Source: Methanobacteriota archaeon (GTDB taxonomy: Archaea; Thermoplasmatota; Thermoplasmata; RBG-16-68-12; JAJISG01). Taken from it: 64,000 nucleotides of DNA. Under the pieces are notes generated by a model. That model was not told the DNA's origin and ran no database searches. It saw nothing but the letters and a program-made list of their open reading frames with translations. The translations under genes were made by a program, and so were the position numbers. The stretch is taken from contig JAUVFR010000005.1 of NCBI GenBank assembly GCA_030594205.1, positions 2,306 through 66,305 on the forward strand, given 5' to 3'. Positions 22,038-28,348 of the stretch are shown piece after piece (the first letter of the stretch is position 1; each line of letters begins with the position of its first letter).

Positions 22038-22079
22038 GACGATATCCTTAATATCGGCCGCGGCGGTGGCATCGACGAT

Positions 22080-22232
22080 AGCGGGGTGGGGTAGCTAGGA
22101 AACCCCGGGTCACCGCTTCAGCGGAGGCCGGAGCCTAAAATCCCGTCGGGCTCATAACCCGGAGATCCCTGGTTCAAAGGACCGGGGGCGGTGCCAACCG
22201 TGGTCCCCGGACTGGATTTCCAGGCCCCGCTA
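22080..22232 (+). tRNA. Initiator tRNA-Met (anticodon CAT), apparently interrupted by two non-canonical introns (~39 nt after position 26; ~40 nt in the T-loop at 59/60)
   Basis: Acceptor 5'-AGCGGGG / CCCCGCT-3' (A1:U72, the archaeal initiator hallmark). D arm GGGT/ACCC. Anticodon arm TCGGG-CTCATAA-CCCGG at 22146-22162. T arm CCTGG-TTCAAA[intron]T-CCAGG. Discriminator A. Folded by eye only. Confidence 0.55.
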
Positions 22233-22410
22233 TCCTCCTTTTACGCATCCCGGGCCCCATCACAGAACGATTAAGTACTCCCCTTTTCGTGCGAGGGGCA
22301 CGACATCGGAGAGCAGCCTCACCGTCACGAATCTGTCGAAGGCCTTCGACGGCCTCCAGGCGGTCGATTCCCTATCGTTAGACGTCAAGCGGGGAGAGAT
22401 TTACGGCTTC

Positions 22411-23232
22411 TTGGGGCCGAACGGGGCCGGGAAGACAACCACCATCAAGATGATTCTCGGCTTGACGTACCCCGATGAGGGCAACGTCCTCATCGACGGC
22501 CTCGACCTCTCTCAGCGGCCCCACGAGATTAAGCGCCGGATTGGCTTCCTGCCGGAGCGCCTTGCCTTCTACGACAATCTCACGGCCCTCCAGACCCTGG
22601 AGTTTTATGCCAGCCTGAAGGGACACAACCGAGAGGGACTCGCGGAACTCCTGGACTCGGTCGGGCTCCGGCAGTTCGCCGACAAGAAGGTCGGCACGTT
22701 CTCCAAGGGGATGATTCAACTCCTTGGCGTGGCGCAGGCCCTGATGGGCCGCCCAAGTCTGCTTCTCCTGGACGAGCCCACAACGGGCCTCGATCCCAAC
22801 TGGACCCGGGTAGTGAAGGACAGGGTGCTTGCGGCCAACCGCGAGGGAGCAACGGTGTTCTTCTCCTCTCACATCCTCACCGAGGTCCAGGAACTCGCGG
22901 GTCGCGTGGGCATCCTCAACCGAGGAAAGCTCATGGTGGAAGACACCGTCAGCAACTTGGGAAGCCGCCTCGAGATGAAACCGCGTCTCCACGTCACGGT
23001 CGCCGGCGATCTCGAGGTTGCCGCCGGAGTCGTCCGTGAAATGGACGGAGTCGATGAGGTCAAGGTATCCGGTGAGGAGCTTCTCGTGACCCTCGACACG
23101 AAGGCGAAGGCCAGGGTCTTGGCTCGGCTGGAGGAGAGGGGAATCGTCGTTCAGGACTTCCGGACCGAGGAACCGTCCTTGGAGGAGGTCTTCCTGAAGT
23201 TCACTGAGGATGTCCGGAGGGAGATCCGGTGA
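22411..23232 (+). CDS. ABC transporter ATP-binding protein; conserved N-terminus extends upstream without a canonical start
   Basis: Walker A GPNGAGKTT sits right at the TTG start of the track ORF. The in-frame upstream translation (…TTSESSLTVTNLSKAFDGLQAVDSLSLDVKRGEIYGF, from ~22300) is the normal ABC N-terminal beta-strand region. The GTG at 22290 is in the -1 frame. Confidence 0.7.
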   Translation: MGPNGAGKTTTIKMILGLTYPDEGNVLIDGLDLSQRPHEIKRRIGFLPERLAFYDNLTALQTLEFYASLKGHNREGLAELLDSVGLRQFADKKVGTFSKGMIQLLGVAQALMGRPSLLLLDEPTTGLDPNWTRVVKDRVLAANREGATVFFSSHILTEVQELAGRVGILNRGKLMVEDTVSNLGSRLEMKPRLHVTVAGDLEVAAGVVREMDGVDEVKVSGEELLVTLDTKAKARVLARLEERGIVVQDFRTEEPSLEEVFLKFTEDVRREIR

Positions 23233-24140
23233 GGCCCTCCGATTCCCCGCGGCGCGATTCCTTCGGCGTCCAGTTTGCCCGGCGCCGTCCCGTCGACCTT
23301 CGGGTCGTTTGGGCCCTGTTGAAGAAGGAATTCCTCGATAGCGTGAGGAACCGGTGGATCATTGCCCTCTCCGCCATCTTCATCGTGCTCACTTTGGTGG
23401 TCTCCTACTTCGGGGCTGCGCAGGCTGGCGGAGGGACGGGCTTTCAGGGCCTGCTTGAGACCGTGGTCGGCATGACCGCCATCGCGCAGATTCTCATCCC
23501 CATCCTGGGTCTCATGATCAGCTATGCCGCAGTGGTGGGGGAGAAGGAACGGGGCTCGATTCTTCTCCTCCTATCCATGCCCATCACCCGCCTCGAGACC
23601 ATCCTTGGGAAGTTCCTCGGTCTGGGCGCCGTCATGCTCGCCGCGGTCCTGTCCGGGCTCGGGATCGGCGGCATCGTCATCATGGCCTTCACGGGCACCG
23701 AGGGGTGGGAGAACTTCATCGTCTTTCTCTTGGGTGCCGTCGTCTTCGCCCTTGCCTTCCTGAGCATCGGCCTTCTCCTGTCCTCCCTCACGAAGCGTCG
23801 TGGCATTGCCATGGGCCTTGCCGTCTTCGTCTGGTTCTTCCTTGCCCTTCTCTTCAACCTTGTCCTCGGGGGGGTGTTGGTCGCTTCGGGGGGAAGCTTC
23901 CTCCCCGTCCCCGGTGAGCCGTTCACGCTTCCGGACTGGTTTTACGCGGCTGGATTGTTCAATCCTGTGGAAGCCTTCAGCTACTTCGCCGTACGGGCCT
24001 TCGGTCTTGGCGGCGCGTTCGGGTTCCCCATAGAGCTCCCTGAATTCGTCTCGATCGGGACGACCGGCCTCTCCATGGCGCTCTGGGCACTCGTTCCCGT
24101 CACCTTGGCCTTCTGGCGGTTCCGACGCCAGGACTTGTAG
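23229..24140 (+). CDS. ABC-2 family transporter permease
   Basis: 303 aa, six TM helices, overlaps the ATPase stop (GTG start). Confidence 0.8.
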   Translation: MRPSDSPRRDSFGVQFARRRPVDLRVVWALLKKEFLDSVRNRWIIALSAIFIVLTLVVSYFGAAQAGGGTGFQGLLETVVGMTAIAQILIPILGLMISYAAVVGEKERGSILLLLSMPITRLETILGKFLGLGAVMLAAVLSGLGIGGIVIMAFTGTEGWENFIVFLLGAVVFALAFLSIGLLLSSLTKRRGIAMGLAVFVWFFLALLFNLVLGGVLVASGGSFLPVPGEPFTLPDWFYAAGLFNPVEAFSYFAVRAFGLGGAFGFPIELPEFVSIGTTGLSMALWALVPVTLAFWRFRRQDL

Positions 24141-24189
24141 CCGACCCGTGGGAAACGCTCCCCATCGAGGCGACCTGACCGGCCTTATC

Positions 24190-24209
24190 ATCGGAAAGAA
24201 TCGGAAAGA
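24190..24209 (+). promoter_or_regulatory. Perfect tandem direct repeat ATCGGAAAGA x2 abutting the TATA-like GTTTATCA upstream of the KaiC-like operon
   Basis: Read from the sequence. It occupies the BRE/upstream-of-TATA position about 40 nt before the first KaiC start. Confidence 0.45.
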
Positions 24210-24245
24210 TACGTTTATCAGCCTTGGACCGAAGGAACCCGCGTC

Positions 24246-25298
24246 TTGATGCAGCGTGTTTCCACCGGGATTGAAGGCCTAGACGCCATGCTCCACGGCG
24301 GCTTGGTTCCCGGTCGGGCCTATGTGCTCACCGGTCCGTCCGGCTCCGGGAAGAGCATCTTGGGCATGCACTTCCTCCTTGAGGGCATCCGGAACGGCGA
24401 GAGCGTCATCCTGGTGTCGGTCGACGAGCCCCCGAACGAGATCAAGGCGAACATGGCCGACTTCGGGTGGAGCCTCGACCGCCTCCGCATTCTGGACGCG
24501 ACTCCCGACATCCGGGCCCATTCCAAGTCCAAGTCCATCATCGACGTCGGGACCACCCTCGACGTCCGCGACATGGAGCAGATCTCCAAAATGCGAAAGA
24601 GCCAGGCACGCATCATGGAGGTCTCCGTCCACTCGATCCAAAAGATGCTCAAGCAGGAGTTCACGGAGCACTTCACGCTCACGGGCAAGCGGTACACGCG
24701 TGTGGTTATCGACTCCATGACCAGCCTGAAGCTCTTCGGCATGCGGGGGGAGGACAACAGCATCCTCATCCAATCCTTCATGCGCTTCCTCTCCGAGCTG
24801 GAGGCGACCATCGTCATCACGACGGACCTCCCCTCCCGCGAGATTCTGGAGACAGAATTCCACCTCGCGCGCGGCGAAGTCCGTCTGCACAAGTGGTACG
24901 AGTCCGGCATGGTGCGGCGTGCGGTCTCCGTGGAGAAGCTCCGGGGATCGTCCTTCGACGATTGCTATCGCCCCATGATCATCGGGGACCAGGGCCTCTT
25001 CGTCCAGGCGGACGCGCAGGTGGCCCTCCATGGACAGCGAACCGACGGCGTTGTCGAGGACTTCATCGAGGACATCCAGACCGAGGAACTCTTCGAGGCC
25101 CTTGAGGAAGTCCTCCGGCTTTGGGAACGGTGCGAGGCCGAGAAACTCAACATCAACAACCTGCGCCCCCGGATCTACCGGGCCTTCACCCATTGGCAGA
25201 TGGGTCTGCGCGAGGAGGCCCTCCAGCAGGCCCTGCTCCTCTTGGAACAGCTGCGGAGTAGGCGGCGGAACCCGTCTCCGCAGGTCGTCGCGAGGTAG
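24246..25298 (+). CDS. KaiC-like RecA-superfamily ATPase (single domain, ~100-aa C-terminal extension)
   Basis: TGIEGLDAMLHGGLVPGRAYVLTGPSGSGKS (Walker A), RVVIDSMTSL (Walker B), KaiC/RadA fold. Confidence 0.8.
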   Translation: MMQRVSTGIEGLDAMLHGGLVPGRAYVLTGPSGSGKSILGMHFLLEGIRNGESVILVSVDEPPNEIKANMADFGWSLDRLRILDATPDIRAHSKSKSIIDVGTTLDVRDMEQISKMRKSQARIMEVSVHSIQKMLKQEFTEHFTLTGKRYTRVVIDSMTSLKLFGMRGEDNSILIQSFMRFLSELEATIVITTDLPSREILETEFHLARGEVRLHKWYESGMVRRAVSVEKLRGSSFDDCYRPMIIGDQGLFVQADAQVALHGQRTDGVVEDFIEDIQTEELFEALEEVLRLWERCEAEKLNINNLRPRIYRAFTHWQMGLREEALQQALLLLEQLRSRRRNPSPQVVAR

Positions 25299-25301
25299 AC
25301 C

Positions 25302-26069
25302 ATGCCAGGGGAGCGCGTCCGGACGGGGATCGAGGGACTTGACCAGATGCTGAATGGCGGCCTCATCCCCCACCGACCCTACATCGTCTCCGGTCCACTC
25401 GGCAGCGGGAAGTCGACGCTCTGCATGCAGTTCCTCCTCCAAGGGCTGAAAGAAGGGCAGCACGGACTTTTCGTGGCGCTGGAGGAACCGCCCAACGAGA
25501 TCCGTTACAATATGGAGTCGTACGGCTGGAAGGTAGGGGACGTCGAGATCTTGGACGCCAACTCCGATATCCGGCGGTTCGAGCCCAACCCCACCCTAGA
25601 GATTTCCTCCGAGATCGCCCCCGTCGCGATGAAGAACCTCCCGGCCAAGATCCGCAAGACCCCCGACGGCACCTCGCGAGAGATCACCGTTCACTCCCTC
25701 CAACAGTCCCTCAAGAACCTGTTCGCCAACAAGCAGTACGACCGCGTGGTCATCGACAGCGTCACGGCCCTCCGGCAGTTCTGCATGCGCAACTTTGAGG
25801 AGAACGTCTCCACCCAGTCCTTCATGCGGTTCCTTTCGGAGTCCGAGAAGACCGCCCTCCTGACCGTGGAGACGCCCTCGAACGGGACCTCCTCCAAGCT
25901 GGAGACCTTCCTGGCCCGGGGCGAGATCCGCCTCTACAAGTTTCGCCAGGACATCGGGATCAAGCGCTTCATCTCCATCGAGAAGTTCAAGGGCTCGAGC
26001 CACATGGAGTCCATCCTCCCCATGGAACTCAACGAGAACGGCCTCGCCGTCCACGCCCGGGCATCCTAG
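25302..26069 (+). CDS. KaiC-like RecA-superfamily ATPase (tandem paralog)
   Basis: TGIEGLDQMLNGGLIPHRPYIVSGPLGSGKS, RVVIDSVTAL. Colinear similarity to the upstream gene, including the same internal insertion. Confidence 0.8.
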   Translation: MPGERVRTGIEGLDQMLNGGLIPHRPYIVSGPLGSGKSTLCMQFLLQGLKEGQHGLFVALEEPPNEIRYNMESYGWKVGDVEILDANSDIRRFEPNPTLEISSEIAPVAMKNLPAKIRKTPDGTSREITVHSLQQSLKNLFANKQYDRVVIDSVTALRQFCMRNFEENVSTQSFMRFLSESEKTALLTVETPSNGTSSKLETFLARGEIRLYKFRQDIGIKRFISIEKFKGSSHMESILPMELNENGLAVHARAS

Positions 26070-26102
26070 GGGCGCTGACCGGACACCTCTCCGAGCCCGC
26101 CC

Positions 26103-27158
26103 ATGGCCTTACCCGTACCACGTCCTCCCCCGCCTCGCCGGCGCAAGGTCCTGGCCCTGACCCTCGTCGCGATCCTGTTCCTGGGGTCCGCCTTCTTTCT
26201 GCTGGCCAACCTGGACGCCGTCCAGCGGTTCTTCCGGGGCGTCCCCGACAACACGTGGGCCCTTTCCTCCACCCAGGCCGACCAGCTCCACGCCATGGGT
26301 CTCACAGGCGCCGGGGTCATTGTCTGCATCGTGGACAGTGGCATCGACCTGGGCCATCCCGATCTCGCGGGATTCGAGCCGGCGGCATGGAGGGACTTCG
26401 TCGCCGACGAGTCGCAGCCCTACGACGATCACGGGCACGGGACCTTCATGGCGGGCCTCATGGTGGGTCGGGGCTTGGTCCGGGGCTTCGCCCCCCAGGT
26501 TTCCATTGTGGTCGCCAAGGCGGTCGACGGCCTGGGCGTGGGCCGGGTCATCGACATCCTCGATGCCCTTCGGTTCTGCATGGACCCCTTCGGAAACGGG
26601 ACCCGGTCCCACATCATCTCCCTCTCCCTGGGAGGAGGCAGCGTCCCCCCCGGCCCCGTATCGGCCCGCGTGAACGAGGTCATCGACCGAGGCGTTGTGG
26701 TGGTCGCGGCGGCAGGCAACGACGGACCGGATGCGCCGGACGTTCAGACCCCTGCCTCGGAGGATCTGGTCATCGCTGTCGGTTCCGTGGACAGCCGCCT
26801 GGAGGTCTCCGATTTCAGCCAGGGTGGACAAAACACCGGTCGGTCGGACCCTAATCGAAAGCCGGAACTCGTCGCCCCCGGCCAGGGACTCGCGACCACG
26901 GGGTTAGGAGGCAGCTACGCGAGCGTCACGGGCACCTCCGCGGCCTCGGCCATCGTGTGCGCGATTCTGGCGTTGGTGTTTGAGGGGGAACCGGCCCTCC
27001 AGAAGCTCGTTTCGGCCTTGGATGTCTCTGCGGTGAAGGTGGCCCTCATGGGGACGGCCTTCCCCTTGGCCGGACAGTCGGAGCCCCACGATCGACTCTA
27101 TGGCTACGGCCTCATTCAGGGGGCAGACCTACTCGACGTGTTGCGCCTTGCCGGTTAG
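26103..27158 (+). CDS. Subtilisin-like serine protease (S8 family) with N-terminal signal anchor
   Basis: Catalytic triad motifs VDSGID (Asp), HGHGTFMAG (His), GTSAASA (Ser). Hydrophobic N-terminus. 33 nt downstream of the KaiC pair on the same strand. Confidence 0.85.
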   Translation: MALPVPRPPPPRRRKVLALTLVAILFLGSAFFLLANLDAVQRFFRGVPDNTWALSSTQADQLHAMGLTGAGVIVCIVDSGIDLGHPDLAGFEPAAWRDFVADESQPYDDHGHGTFMAGLMVGRGLVRGFAPQVSIVVAKAVDGLGVGRVIDILDALRFCMDPFGNGTRSHIISLSLGGGSVPPGPVSARVNEVIDRGVVVVAAAGNDGPDAPDVQTPASEDLVIAVGSVDSRLEVSDFSQGGQNTGRSDPNRKPELVAPGQGLATTGLGGSYASVTGTSAASAIVCAILALVFEGEPALQKLVSALDVSAVKVALMGTAFPLAGQSEPHDRLYGYGLIQGADLLDVLRLAG

Positions 27159-27226
27159 TCGCCTCCTGCCGCCGGCCCCGATTATCTTAAATAGACGCGC
27201 CAATTTCCGCCATCCCCTACTACGGG

Positions 27227-28348
27227 ATGGGATGCAACATGCGTTCGATTGTAAATAGGGCCATCGCCCGTCTGGAGCAGGCTAGGCTCCTGGAGGACAC
27301 GAGCGACCCCCCGGTCGCCGAAGAGGATGAGGAACTCCGCCAACTCGTGGACTCTTTGAATGTCAGCATCAAGATCATGGGCTGTGGCGGCGGCGGGTGC
27401 AACACGATCAGCCGCCTCTCGGAATCCGGCATCGTGGGGGCTCAGCTCAGCGCCCTCAACACGGACGCCAACCACCTCCGTCACATCCGGGCGCCGAAGA
27501 AGGTCCTCCTCGGAAAGGAGATCACCCGAGGTCTGGGGGCCGGCGCCATTCCGGAGGTAGGCGAGCGGGCAGCCCGGGAGAGCATGCCGGAGATCCGGGC
27601 CCTCCTCCAAGGGGCCAACGTCGTCTTCGTCACGGCGGGCCTAGGGGGGGGCACCGGCACCGGTGCGGCCCACATCATCGCCCAGACCGCGAAGGACCTC
27701 GGCGCCCTCGTCATGGGGGTAGTCACGATGCCCTTCGCGGCGGAAGGCACCATGCGGCGGGAGAACGCCGAGCGGGGCCTGGAAAGTCTCCGACGCCACT
27801 GCGACACCACGGCTGTCGTGGAGAATGACCGTCTCCTGGAACTCGTCCCGGATCTCCCTCTGGAGGCGGCCTTCAAGGTCGCCGATGAGATCCTCACGCA
27901 GAGCATCAAGGGCATGACGGAGATCGTCACGAAGCCCGGGCTCGTCAATGTCGACTACAGCGACCTCCTCACCATCATCGAGGAGGGCGGTGTCGCCATG
28001 ATTGGCATCGGCGAGGCGCGAGGGGAGGTGAATCGCGTGGACCTCGCGGTGGAGGAAGCCCTTCAGTCTCCCCTGCTCGGGGAGGTGGACGCGAGCCAGG
28101 TAGGCGGGGTCCTCATCCGGGTCGTGGGAGGGCCGGATCTTACGGTGGAGGAGGCGGAACGGGCGGCTGAGCTCATCGGCGCCCAGACGAACCCCATGGC
28201 GCGCATCATCTGGGGGTGCTCTGTCGATCCGGAGCTAGAAAAGGAGGTCCGCGTCCTCGTCGTCCTCACGGGCGTCCAGGGGGAGAACCTCCTGGGAAAG
28301 GACACGAGCCACGTCCTGGAAGGAATCGGGATTGACGTGGTTACCTAA
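27227..28348 (+). CDS. ftsZ: Cell division GTPase FtsZ
   Basis: IKIMGCGGGGCNTISRL and the tubulin signature GGGTGTG. The second ATG at 27239 (MRSIV…) is the more likely start. Confidence 0.9.
   Translation: MGCNMRSIVNRAIARLEQARLLEDTSDPPVAEEDEELRQLVDSLNVSIKIMGCGGGGCNTISRLSESGIVGAQLSALNTDANHLRHIRAPKKVLLGKEITRGLGAGAIPEVGERAARESMPEIRALLQGANVVFVTAGLGGGTGTGAAHIIAQTAKDLGALVMGVVTMPFAAEGTMRRENAERGLESLRRHCDTTAVVENDRLLELVPDLPLEAAFKVADEILTQSIKGMTEIVTKPGLVNVDYSDLLTIIEEGGVAMIGIGEARGEVNRVDLAVEEALQSPLLGEVDASQVGGVLIRVVGGPDLTVEEAERAAELIGAQTNPMARIIWGCSVDPELEKEVRVLVVLTGVQGENLLGKDTSHVLEGIGIDVVT

Follow-up and report, generated by a model that had tools for sequence, protein, structure and literature searches.

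A split pair of KaiC-like ATPases behind a conserved promoter forms a well-delimited subfamily in Thermoplasmata

This report concerns two adjacent genes for KaiC-like ATPases, here called kaiC1 and kaiC2, and the promoter in front of them, in a 64-kb stretch of contig JAUVFR010000005.1 from a Thermoplasmatota archaeon (assembly GCA_030594205.1; the whole stretch is called the window). The open reading frame (ORF) list of the window and a Pfam scan place the two genes in a same-strand run that encodes an ATP-binding cassette (ABC) ATPase, an ABC-2 permease, KaiC1, KaiC2, an S8 subtilase, and FtsZ. An archaeal Rpp14-PsmA-SBDS-Rrp4 block lies 3' of FtsZ, with the proteasome alpha subunit encoded three genes downstream of the KaiC pair, and the public annotation of the source contig gives generic names only. 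A first-pass annotation of this DNA had described a KaiC-KaiC-subtilase operon behind a tandem repeat and had read it as a dedicated pairing of ATPases with an exported protease. The features of the KaiC pair and its promoter are as follows:

24183 to 24223, + strand: conserved core of the kaiC1 promoter, from an ungapped 12-species alignment
24183 to 24189, + strand: CCTTATC, 5' part of the core
24190 to 24209, + strand: tandem ATCGGAAAGA x2, followed by TACG
24214 to 24220, + strand: TATA-like TTTATCA
24249 to 25298, + strand: kaiC1, KaiC-like RecA-superfamily ATPase, 349 aa (PF06745, E=3e-36)
24333 to 24356, + strand: kaiC1 Walker A
24414 to 24434, + strand: segment containing the kaiC1 acidic pair D59-E60
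about 24498 to 24623, + strand: kaiC1 inserted segment, residues 84-125
24699 to 24716, + strand: kaiC1 Walker B
about 25044 to 25268, + strand: kaiC1 C-terminal helical, weakly TPR-like tail, residues 266-340
25302 to 26069, + strand: kaiC2, KaiC-like ATPase, 255 aa (PF06745, E=4e-42), 3 nt past kaiC1
25392 to 25415, + strand: kaiC2 Walker A
25473 to 25493, + strand: segment containing kaiC2 E61-E62
about 25557 to 25685, + strand: kaiC2 inserted segment, residues 86-128
25743 to 25760, + strand: kaiC2 Walker B

The two proteins exceed the PF06745 gathering score of 26.6 bits by a wide margin (KaiC1, 125 bits; KaiC2, 145 bits) and are 43% identical to each other over 258 aa, which bears out their earlier description as related KaiC-family ATPases. 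The catalytic motifs are intact in both (GPSGSGKS and GPLGSGKS, VDEPP and LEEPP, and RVVIDS), and in 30 homologues of each protein the Walker A, acidic pair, Walker B, and RGE.R / K.(K/R)GS positions are invariant or nearly so. Hydrophobic segments are absent from KaiC1 and KaiC2, and both are predicted to be soluble. When the pair was scored against curated families, it fell below the cut-offs of the clock KaiC models TIGR02655 and NF006799 (97-105 bits versus 408 and 61-68 bits versus 546, respectively), of the archaeal KaiC families TIGR03877, TIGR03880, and TIGR03881 (68-98 bits versus 248-307), and of the ArlH/FlaH model (27-32 bits versus 215), and there are no arl genes among the neighbours. 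The annotated neighbours, both in the window and in the related loci examined, include neither kaiB nor kaiA. The two ATPase domains of the window are encoded by two genes and do not share a polypeptide; fused forms occur in other lineages only. Nothing measured departs in kind from known archaeal KaiC-like ATPases. The locus represents a new, well-delimited member of this superfamily, in which a conserved promoter precedes a two-domain pair that is split between two genes.

The distribution of the pair was followed in a one-genome-per-species scan that yielded 70 loci, all in Thermoplasmata-type metagenome-assembled genomes, with gene arrangements tallied by tblastn; the 53 species-level loci that carry KaiC2 and ftsZ on one contig are the basis of all arrangement counts given here. 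In all loci with sufficient sequence, kaiC2 adjoins kaiC1, after a 3-nt spacer in the window and with a 4-nt overlap in distant relatives. The search with KaiC1 also returned seven fused protein clusters of 529-537 aa, in which an N-terminal half nearest KaiC1 (53-59% identity), without its tail, is joined by a short basic linker of ~20 aa to a C-terminal half nearest KaiC2 (52-55% identity). These fusions recreate the two-domain KaiC architecture, and the natural joining of KaiC1-like and KaiC2-like halves argues that the two proteins work as one. On balance, we favour the reading that kaiC1-kaiC2 is a conserved functional unit that encodes a split double-ring KaiC-type ATPase of a Thermoplasmata subfamily.

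Outside the group with the window's arrangement, the pair takes several other forms. Pairs without the tail exist at about 57% identity and pairs in reversed order at 41-45%, and in a more distant branch (L083) the gene for a 733-aa KaiC1-like protein, which has the helical tail and a long Pro/Ala-rich region, overlaps the gene for a 257-aa KaiC. No recurring partner was found beside the tail-less pairs; the genes around them code for UbiA, for proteins with an Lrp/AsnC ligand-binding domain, for a surface protein of the beta-propeller type, and for two membrane proteins without annotation. In the wider subfamily, many KaiC1-like proteins (P0396, P0398, and P0402; L083 1371-4342) carry C-terminal Pro/Ala-rich regions of 300-1000 aa, which follow the TPR-like tail, contain basic patches, and appear to be disordered; one member (P0392) has a zinc ribbon at its C-terminus and two repeats that resemble the tail. 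In a single case that may be a coincidence (L078 4732-5499), a PAC2 gene of the proteasome assembly chaperone family directly follows a fused form.

Both KaiC proteins contain a segment of ~40 aa that follows the sequence ILDA(T/N)(P/S)D. In phmmer alignments with cyanobacterial-type KaiC, query residues 81-132 lie opposite KaiC chain residues 98-126 and query residues 94-142 lie opposite residues 110-129, and the segment exceeds its counterpart in length by 23-29 aa. The shared segment noted in the first-pass annotation is therefore present in both proteins, but the net insertion is about 23-30 aa, not 40. By the invariant columns among 30 homologues of each protein, the insertion is among the most conserved parts of each: the invariant residues of KaiC2 read SD.RRFEP.P..E.S.E ... 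IRK ... E...HSLQ, and KaiC1 has a different pattern that is equally fixed. Among 1.84 billion representatives, searched exhaustively, 134 clusters reached E<=1e-30, and ~85-90 of the best 150 matches cover the whole query in one stretch, whereas ordinary two-domain KaiCs break into several; this one-stretch alignment indicates that the insertion is common to those ~85-90 matches. The KaiC CI region to which the insertion aligns (residues 98-126) includes the B-loop (residues 116-123), which is the KaiB binding site (PMC12084410). Because the insertion is conserved and is placed at the position of the CI B-loop, we infer that it may be a docking surface for a putative partner.

The predicted structure of KaiC2 (predicted local distance difference test (pLDDT) score 79.6, predicted template modelling (pTM) score 0.84) has its best Foldseek matches in PH0284, PH0186, and the KaiC CI domain, with E values of about 1e-17 to 1e-18 and TM scores, normalised by target length, of 0.75-0.86. 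In the KaiC1 model, the three C-terminal helices (residues 269-340) are predicted with confidence (pLDDT about 90), unlike the rest of the model. For this tail, a profile search against sequences of the Protein Data Bank (PDB), together with Pfam scans of 15 such tails, returned TPR-like matches, all of them below threshold. Because the tail is absent from the fused forms, one may speculate that it substitutes for their covalent link.

The promoter of kaiC1 contains the tandem repeat to which the first-pass annotation had assigned a regulatory position beside a TATA box. The two copies of ATCGGAAAGA are exact and end 4 nt 5' of TTTATC (24214-24219), as had been described, and they are the only perfect two-copy tandem with a period of at least 10 in the window. 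When 64-kb sequences were simulated with a Markov model, 11% of them held at least one such tandem, and the ATCGGAAAGA repeat alone is therefore not significant. The 120 nt upstream of kaiC1 were also aligned among 12 species in which KaiC1 is 66-91% identical. In this alignment, the consensus CCTTATC-N7-AAGAATCG.AA.GATA.GcTTATCAgcC is gapless in all 12 species, its flanks are unalignable, and its two TTATC motifs keep a spacing of exactly 30 bp in 12/12. The second TTATC lies 34-44 nt 5' of the ATG in the 12 species, and the TATA-like box lies at 34-38 nt in the closest group; the 34-44 nt distance fits a short leader. Because of this ungapped conservation, and in spite of the chance rate of the repeat itself, we take the 40-bp core that holds the repeat to be a real cis-regulatory element.

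Within this core, the N7 region of the closest group became a copy of the unit that follows it, which produced the perfect tandem; one species of the group has the variant CAGTGGAAAGA. In the next group, GATAAGCTTATC forms a perfect palindrome across the TATA-like box, and more distant species have another conserved element, TGATTCTCAsGwCGsAACGTTTATC. No second copy of the 10-mer, of the CTTATC-N-TTATC architecture, or of the AAGAATCG.AA.GATA core occurs within the 64-kb window. Many distant relatives (L025, L028, L030, L032, L034, L036, L040, L055, L057, and others) have a conserved inverted repeat, GTTAACCTTGTTTAAGGTTAAC, at a distance of ~100 nt 5' of kaiC1, after the tRNA-Met region and ahead of the promoter; the repeat is absent from the window.

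The genes that follow kaiC2 in the window are those of the S8 subtilase and FtsZ:

26103 to 27158, + strand: S8 subtilase, 351 aa (PF00082, E=2e-42), an accessory gene in a variable slot
26148 to 26207, + strand: N-terminal signal-anchor helix of the S8 protein
26331 to 26348, + strand: S8 catalytic motif, Asp
26430 to 26444, + strand: S8 catalytic motif, His
26712 to 26726, + strand: S8 catalytic motif, Asn
26931 to 26948, + strand: S8 catalytic motif, Ser
27187 to 27193, + strand: TATA box TTAAATA of ftsZ, 40 nt before the ftsZ ATG; ftsZ's own promoter and the end of the kaiC unit
27227 to 28348, + strand: ftsZ (TIGR00065, 386 bits versus a cut-off of 295; Pfam Tubulin and FtsZ_C)

The position of ftsZ raises the possibility that the KaiC pair regulates FtsZ-based division, with the state of the ATPase timing or licensing assembly of the Z-ring. 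A same-strand ftsZ follows kaiC2 in all 53 species-level loci and does so directly in 38 of them (gap <320 nt, about 85-300 nt); S8 lies between the two genes in 11 loci, one of which holds a decayed fragment, and the remaining 4 have another insert or a gap of 0.5-0.6 kb without a clear ORF. This adjacency holds where KaiC2 is only 56-64% identical, and KaiC2 is conserved to the same degree as FtsZ (clade-wide identity of 56-64% and 61-65%, respectively, beside 47-54% for RNase HII and 36-43% for the amidohydrolase). However, the whole 10-gene block, amidohydrolase-RNase HII-SCP2-(tRNA-Met)-kaiC1-kaiC2-ftsZ-Rpp14-PsmA-SBDS, keeps its order just as well in these genomes, and the adjacency of kaiC and ftsZ therefore need not mean a shared function. 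In addition, ftsZ has its own conserved B recognition element (BRE) and TATA box: an upstream element, (GTATGACTAs)TTTTAAATA or CTTAAATAG, is found about 40-45 nt 5' of the ATG in all loci, whether or not they have S8, and no motif common to it and the kaiC promoter was seen. The gap between kaiC2 and ftsZ tolerates inserts of 1-8.6 kb of unrelated genes, ftsZ is not close to those pairs and fusions that fall outside the clade, and the helical tail is also present in a pair without an adjacent ftsZ. Literature searches on KaiC-like proteins with FtsZ, and on KaiC with Thermoplasmata, returned nothing relevant. From these results, we regard regulation of FtsZ-based division by the pair as unlikely, and the fuller proposal that a clade-specific split-KaiC switch couples to FtsZ-dependent division, with the loop and the TPR-like tail docking divisome components, as improbable. 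If it were true, the position of the pair upstream of ftsZ in >50 species would reflect function and not inherited gene order.

The ftsZ promoter is strongly conserved (window 27180-27226; upstream of ftsZ in L004-L076). In the more distant relatives it is preceded by a conserved near-palindromic sequence, TGTCwGACA ... GTATGACTA, which may be an operator for the regulation of ftsZ.

A second alternative to the split KaiC-type unit is that the two proteins are RadA paralogues (Rad55, aRadC, or RadB-like) that act in recombinational repair. Several homologues are named 'RAD55 family ATPase' by NCBI, and genes for two repair proteins, RNase HII and endonuclease V, are found a few genes before the pair, but these are part of the synteny at large, and SCP2, the tRNA, and the promoter stand between them and kaiC1. 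The KaiC-like protein SSO2452, which has a solved structure and has been described as a RadA paralogue, is among the sequence matches, at E=6e-7, far weaker than the KaiC match at 1e-32. Family models separate the pair from these proteins in the same way (RadB TIGR02237, 19 bits versus a cut-off of 172; Sms/RadA TIGR00416, 27-30 bits versus 403), whereas KaiC models give 88-105 bits. There is also no DNA-binding N-terminal domain, and we consider a role for the pair as RadA paralogues to be improbable.

The S8 protein itself agrees with its earlier description as a membrane-anchored subtilase encoded after a 33-nt spacer. It matches PF00082 with 146 bits versus a cut-off of 21.8 and has all of the motifs VDSGID, HGHGT, AGNDG, and GTSAAS, with residues D79/H112/N206/S279. 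The N-terminus is basic and is followed by a single hydrophobic helix (residues 16-35, KD19 = 2.7), without a prodomain. Its best NCBIfam match, the mycosin model TIGR03921, scored 118 bits, below the cut-off of 279.

The S8 gene is absent between kaiC2 and ftsZ in 42 of the 53 loci. Those that have it are the closest relatives of the window, L012, L013 (the decayed fragment), and a distant subgroup (L029, L045, L048, and L049). A relative with an 87% identical KaiC2 has the same ABC-ABC2-KaiC-KaiC-S8-FtsZ order, and relatives at 75% and 61% have SCP2-KaiC-KaiC-FtsZ, without S8 or the ABC genes. Where the gap is occupied, its contents vary: a DUF5654 membrane protein accompanies S8 in the distant subgroup, secreted or anchored proteins of 218 aa, 646-832 aa, and about 390 aa surround it in L012 and L013, and a 387-aa C-terminally anchored protein stands alone in L051 and L053. 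The kaiC2-ftsZ interval is a slot of variable content, open to genes for other surface proteins besides S8.

Relatives of the S8 protein are also found outside this slot. In one assembly with an empty slot (L003), the closest S8 relative adjoins an ATP-grasp gene elsewhere; in another contig (L031), an S8 relative lies about 25 kb from the KaiC pair, beside a 7TM-transglutaminase/ATP-grasp gene; and a marine relative has an unrelated gene context. In a neighbour-joining tree, the S8 genes of the slot form two separate clades, one of which is sister to an S8 gene located elsewhere. Neither S8 nor ftsZ was near the fused, tail-less, or long-tail versions of the pair that were examined in other lineages. 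The patchy occupancy of the slot, the relatives elsewhere, and the two clades together show that S8 is not a dedicated partner of the KaiC proteins. The neighbourhood-conservation check proposed in the first-pass annotation thus returned a patchy KaiC-S8 adjacency, close to the lack of conservation in related genomes that it had named as evidence against the pairing; the S8 gene is in 11 of the 53 loci and in none outside the ftsZ-linked clade.

The kaiC2-S8 spacers of the six closest relatives are 29-50 nt long, GC-rich, and unconserved, without a TATA-like box. The proposed KaiC-KaiC-S8 operon is very probably one transcription unit in this lineage. A module in which an exported protease is gated by the ATPases, or receives signals from them, would be consistent with the promoter-less S8 gene that follows kaiC2 in the window and its six closest relatives, with the recurrence of S8 in the same slot of L012, of the distant subgroup, and as a remnant in L013, and with the existence of systems that pair an ATPase with a subtilase, such as IetAS. 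The distribution of S8 argues against it, as do the lack of S8 beside any fused, tail-less, or long-tail form of the pair, the S8 relatives beside ATP-grasp genes in empty-slot genomes, the unrelated surface-protein genes in the same slot, and the derivation of the slot S8 genes from two clades. Moreover, the catalytic domain is predicted to lie outside the membrane and the ATPases have no hydrophobic segment, so that direct gating would need a membrane partner. Such a module is thus very improbable. A defence system of the IetAS type was scored with PADLOC and rejected: the S8 protein gave a weak match to IetS (24.6 bits), and the KaiC proteins did not match IetA, only a weak P-loop model.

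Membrane-anchored S8 relatives outside the slot (L080 6001-7119 and L081 6001-7077) adjoin ATPgrasp_ST or 7TM_transglut genes, and this association may tell more about the function of the protease than the KaiC neighbourhood does.

The ABC transporter genes upstream of the pair are likewise a lineage-specific insertion and not part of the module; they are listed here with the tRNA-Met gene that precedes them:

about 22300 to 23232, + strand: ABC ATPase (Pfam)
23229 to 24140, + strand: ABC-2 permease (Pfam)
22079 to 22235, + strand: initiator-like tRNA-Met, CAT anticodon, 5' AGCGGGG ... CCCCGCTA 3'

These ABC genes sit between the tRNA-Met gene and the kaiC1 promoter and are present in the closest relatives only (L001/L011, L008, L009, and L010). 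The exporter had been placed at 22411-24140; it does lie upstream on the same strand, but the ATPase ORF begins near 22300. The ATPase frame extends about 37 codons 5' of the first TTG (22411), which is inside the Walker A region, and the stretch from about 22300 to 22410 encodes conserved N-terminal sequence with none of the codons ATG, GTG, and TTG in it. Position 22300 of the window holds an in-frame ACG that is also conserved in L008, L009, and L011, and this may be a non-canonical start codon of the ABC ATPase. The tRNA-Met of the window was missed by ARAGORN and Rfam and was recovered by alignment to intron-less orthologues; compared with those at the same position in L029 and L049, it is interrupted twice, within the D-arm region and within the T-loop, by insertions of about 38-40 nt.

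The place of the split pair among known systems can be judged by comparison. Like cyanobacterial KaiC, it belongs to the same Pfam family and fold, keeps the Walker A and B motifs, the acidic pair, and the arginine-rich strand, consists of tandem paralogues like CI and CII (fused, at 529-537 aa, in other lineages), and has its insertion at the position of the CI B-loop. Unlike cyanobacterial KaiC, the pair is split into two genes, has no kaiA or kaiB nearby, and scores far below the curated models; its loop is 23-29 aa longer, and KaiC1 has the extra helical tail. At the position that corresponds, by sequence alignment only, to the CII phospho-acceptor pair (before the RGEIRL strand), the residue is T, S, A, G, or N, which does not read as a conserved Ser/Thr, and KaiC1 and KaiC2 both look CI-like.

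The best matches of the KaiC2 model, PH0284 (2dr3) and PH0186 (2zts) of Pyrococcus horikoshii (E about 1e-18; TM 0.77-0.83 by target), are, like KaiC2, single-domain proteins of about 230-250 aa whose function is uncharacterised. They differ in sequence (25-26% identity) and lack most of the insertion (248 aa in the query versus 232 aa), and neither is known to belong to a conserved, translationally coupled pair of paralogues. Makarova, Galperin and Koonin, in a 2017 survey in mBio (cited in PMC5847659 and PMC6393860), reportedly proposed archaeal KaiC-like ATPases as signal-transduction hubs. Such hub proteins resemble the window proteins in being abundant, in having an uncharacterised output, and in their variable neighbourhoods and C-terminal extensions, which in the wider family of the pair comprise the TPR-like tail, Pro-rich regions, and the zinc ribbon; the window subfamily differs in being unusually conserved and in lying in a housekeeping block, not beside sensor or effector domains.

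Rhodobacter sphaeroides KaiC (8dba/8fwi), which is among the sequence matches, also has a helical C-terminal extension past the ATPase core. That extension follows the CII domain of a two-domain protein and joins two hexamers, whereas the tail of the window is a three-helix, weakly TPR-like structure that belongs to the first member of the split pair, and the fused forms have lost it. The S8 protein shares with mycosins and generic S8 proteases the fold, the motifs of the catalytic residues, one membrane anchor, and the lack of a long prodomain; it differs from mycosins in its N-terminal anchor, in having no type VII secretion context, and in its score.

The model that we favour is as follows. 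Transcription would start from the TATA-like TTTATC box, where the 40-bp operator-like core that overlaps and precedes the box, with the 10-bp tandem as its local version, would probably be bound by a sequence-specific regulator, either an activator or a repressor. The two KaiC domains come from separate, translationally coupled genes, and KaiC1 and KaiC2, each having intact catalytic motifs, would be made in equal amounts. The two proteins would most likely form a single ring, either two-tier (CI/CII-like) or mixed, in which slow ATP turnover acts as a conformational switch, and the enlarged loop at the B-loop position and the helical tail of KaiC1 may dock partner proteins. The pair would thus be a cytoplasmic regulatory ATPase and not a regulator of the protease. 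The S8 gene would have been inserted in this lineage between kaiC2 and ftsZ and be expressed by read-through, and its product, with the topology predicted from its anchor, would be an extracytoplasmic membrane-anchored protease that carries out surface or extracellular proteolysis independently of the ATPases.

Several points pull against this account. S8 occupies the same slot in two distant sub-lineages with genes drawn from two S8 clades, and this recurrence could mean some selection for the arrangement, not pure accident. Co-transcription of S8 by read-through from the kaiC promoter is no more than probable, being deduced from spacers in which no promoter can be recognised. For KaiC1, the model is of poor quality (pLDDT 60) and did not enter the fold search, and the insertion has low to moderate confidence in the KaiC2 model (pLDDT 45-73) and low confidence in that of KaiC1, so that any structural role for it is a guess at this level of model confidence. 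The kaiC1-kaiC2 subfamily may, moreover, already be catalogued in the 2017 survey of Makarova et al.

KaiC-like ATPases are among the most abundant uncharacterised archaeal ATPases, and one well-delimited subfamily of them is now defined. Its members keep pace with FtsZ in slow evolution, inside a housekeeping block of soil and sediment Thermoplasmata. A false lead has been removed as well, in that the protease and the ABC transporter are passengers of the locus and not partners of the KaiC proteins. The KaiC pair and its loop offer a concrete target for biochemistry, and the 40-bp promoter element provides a handle for finding the regulator.

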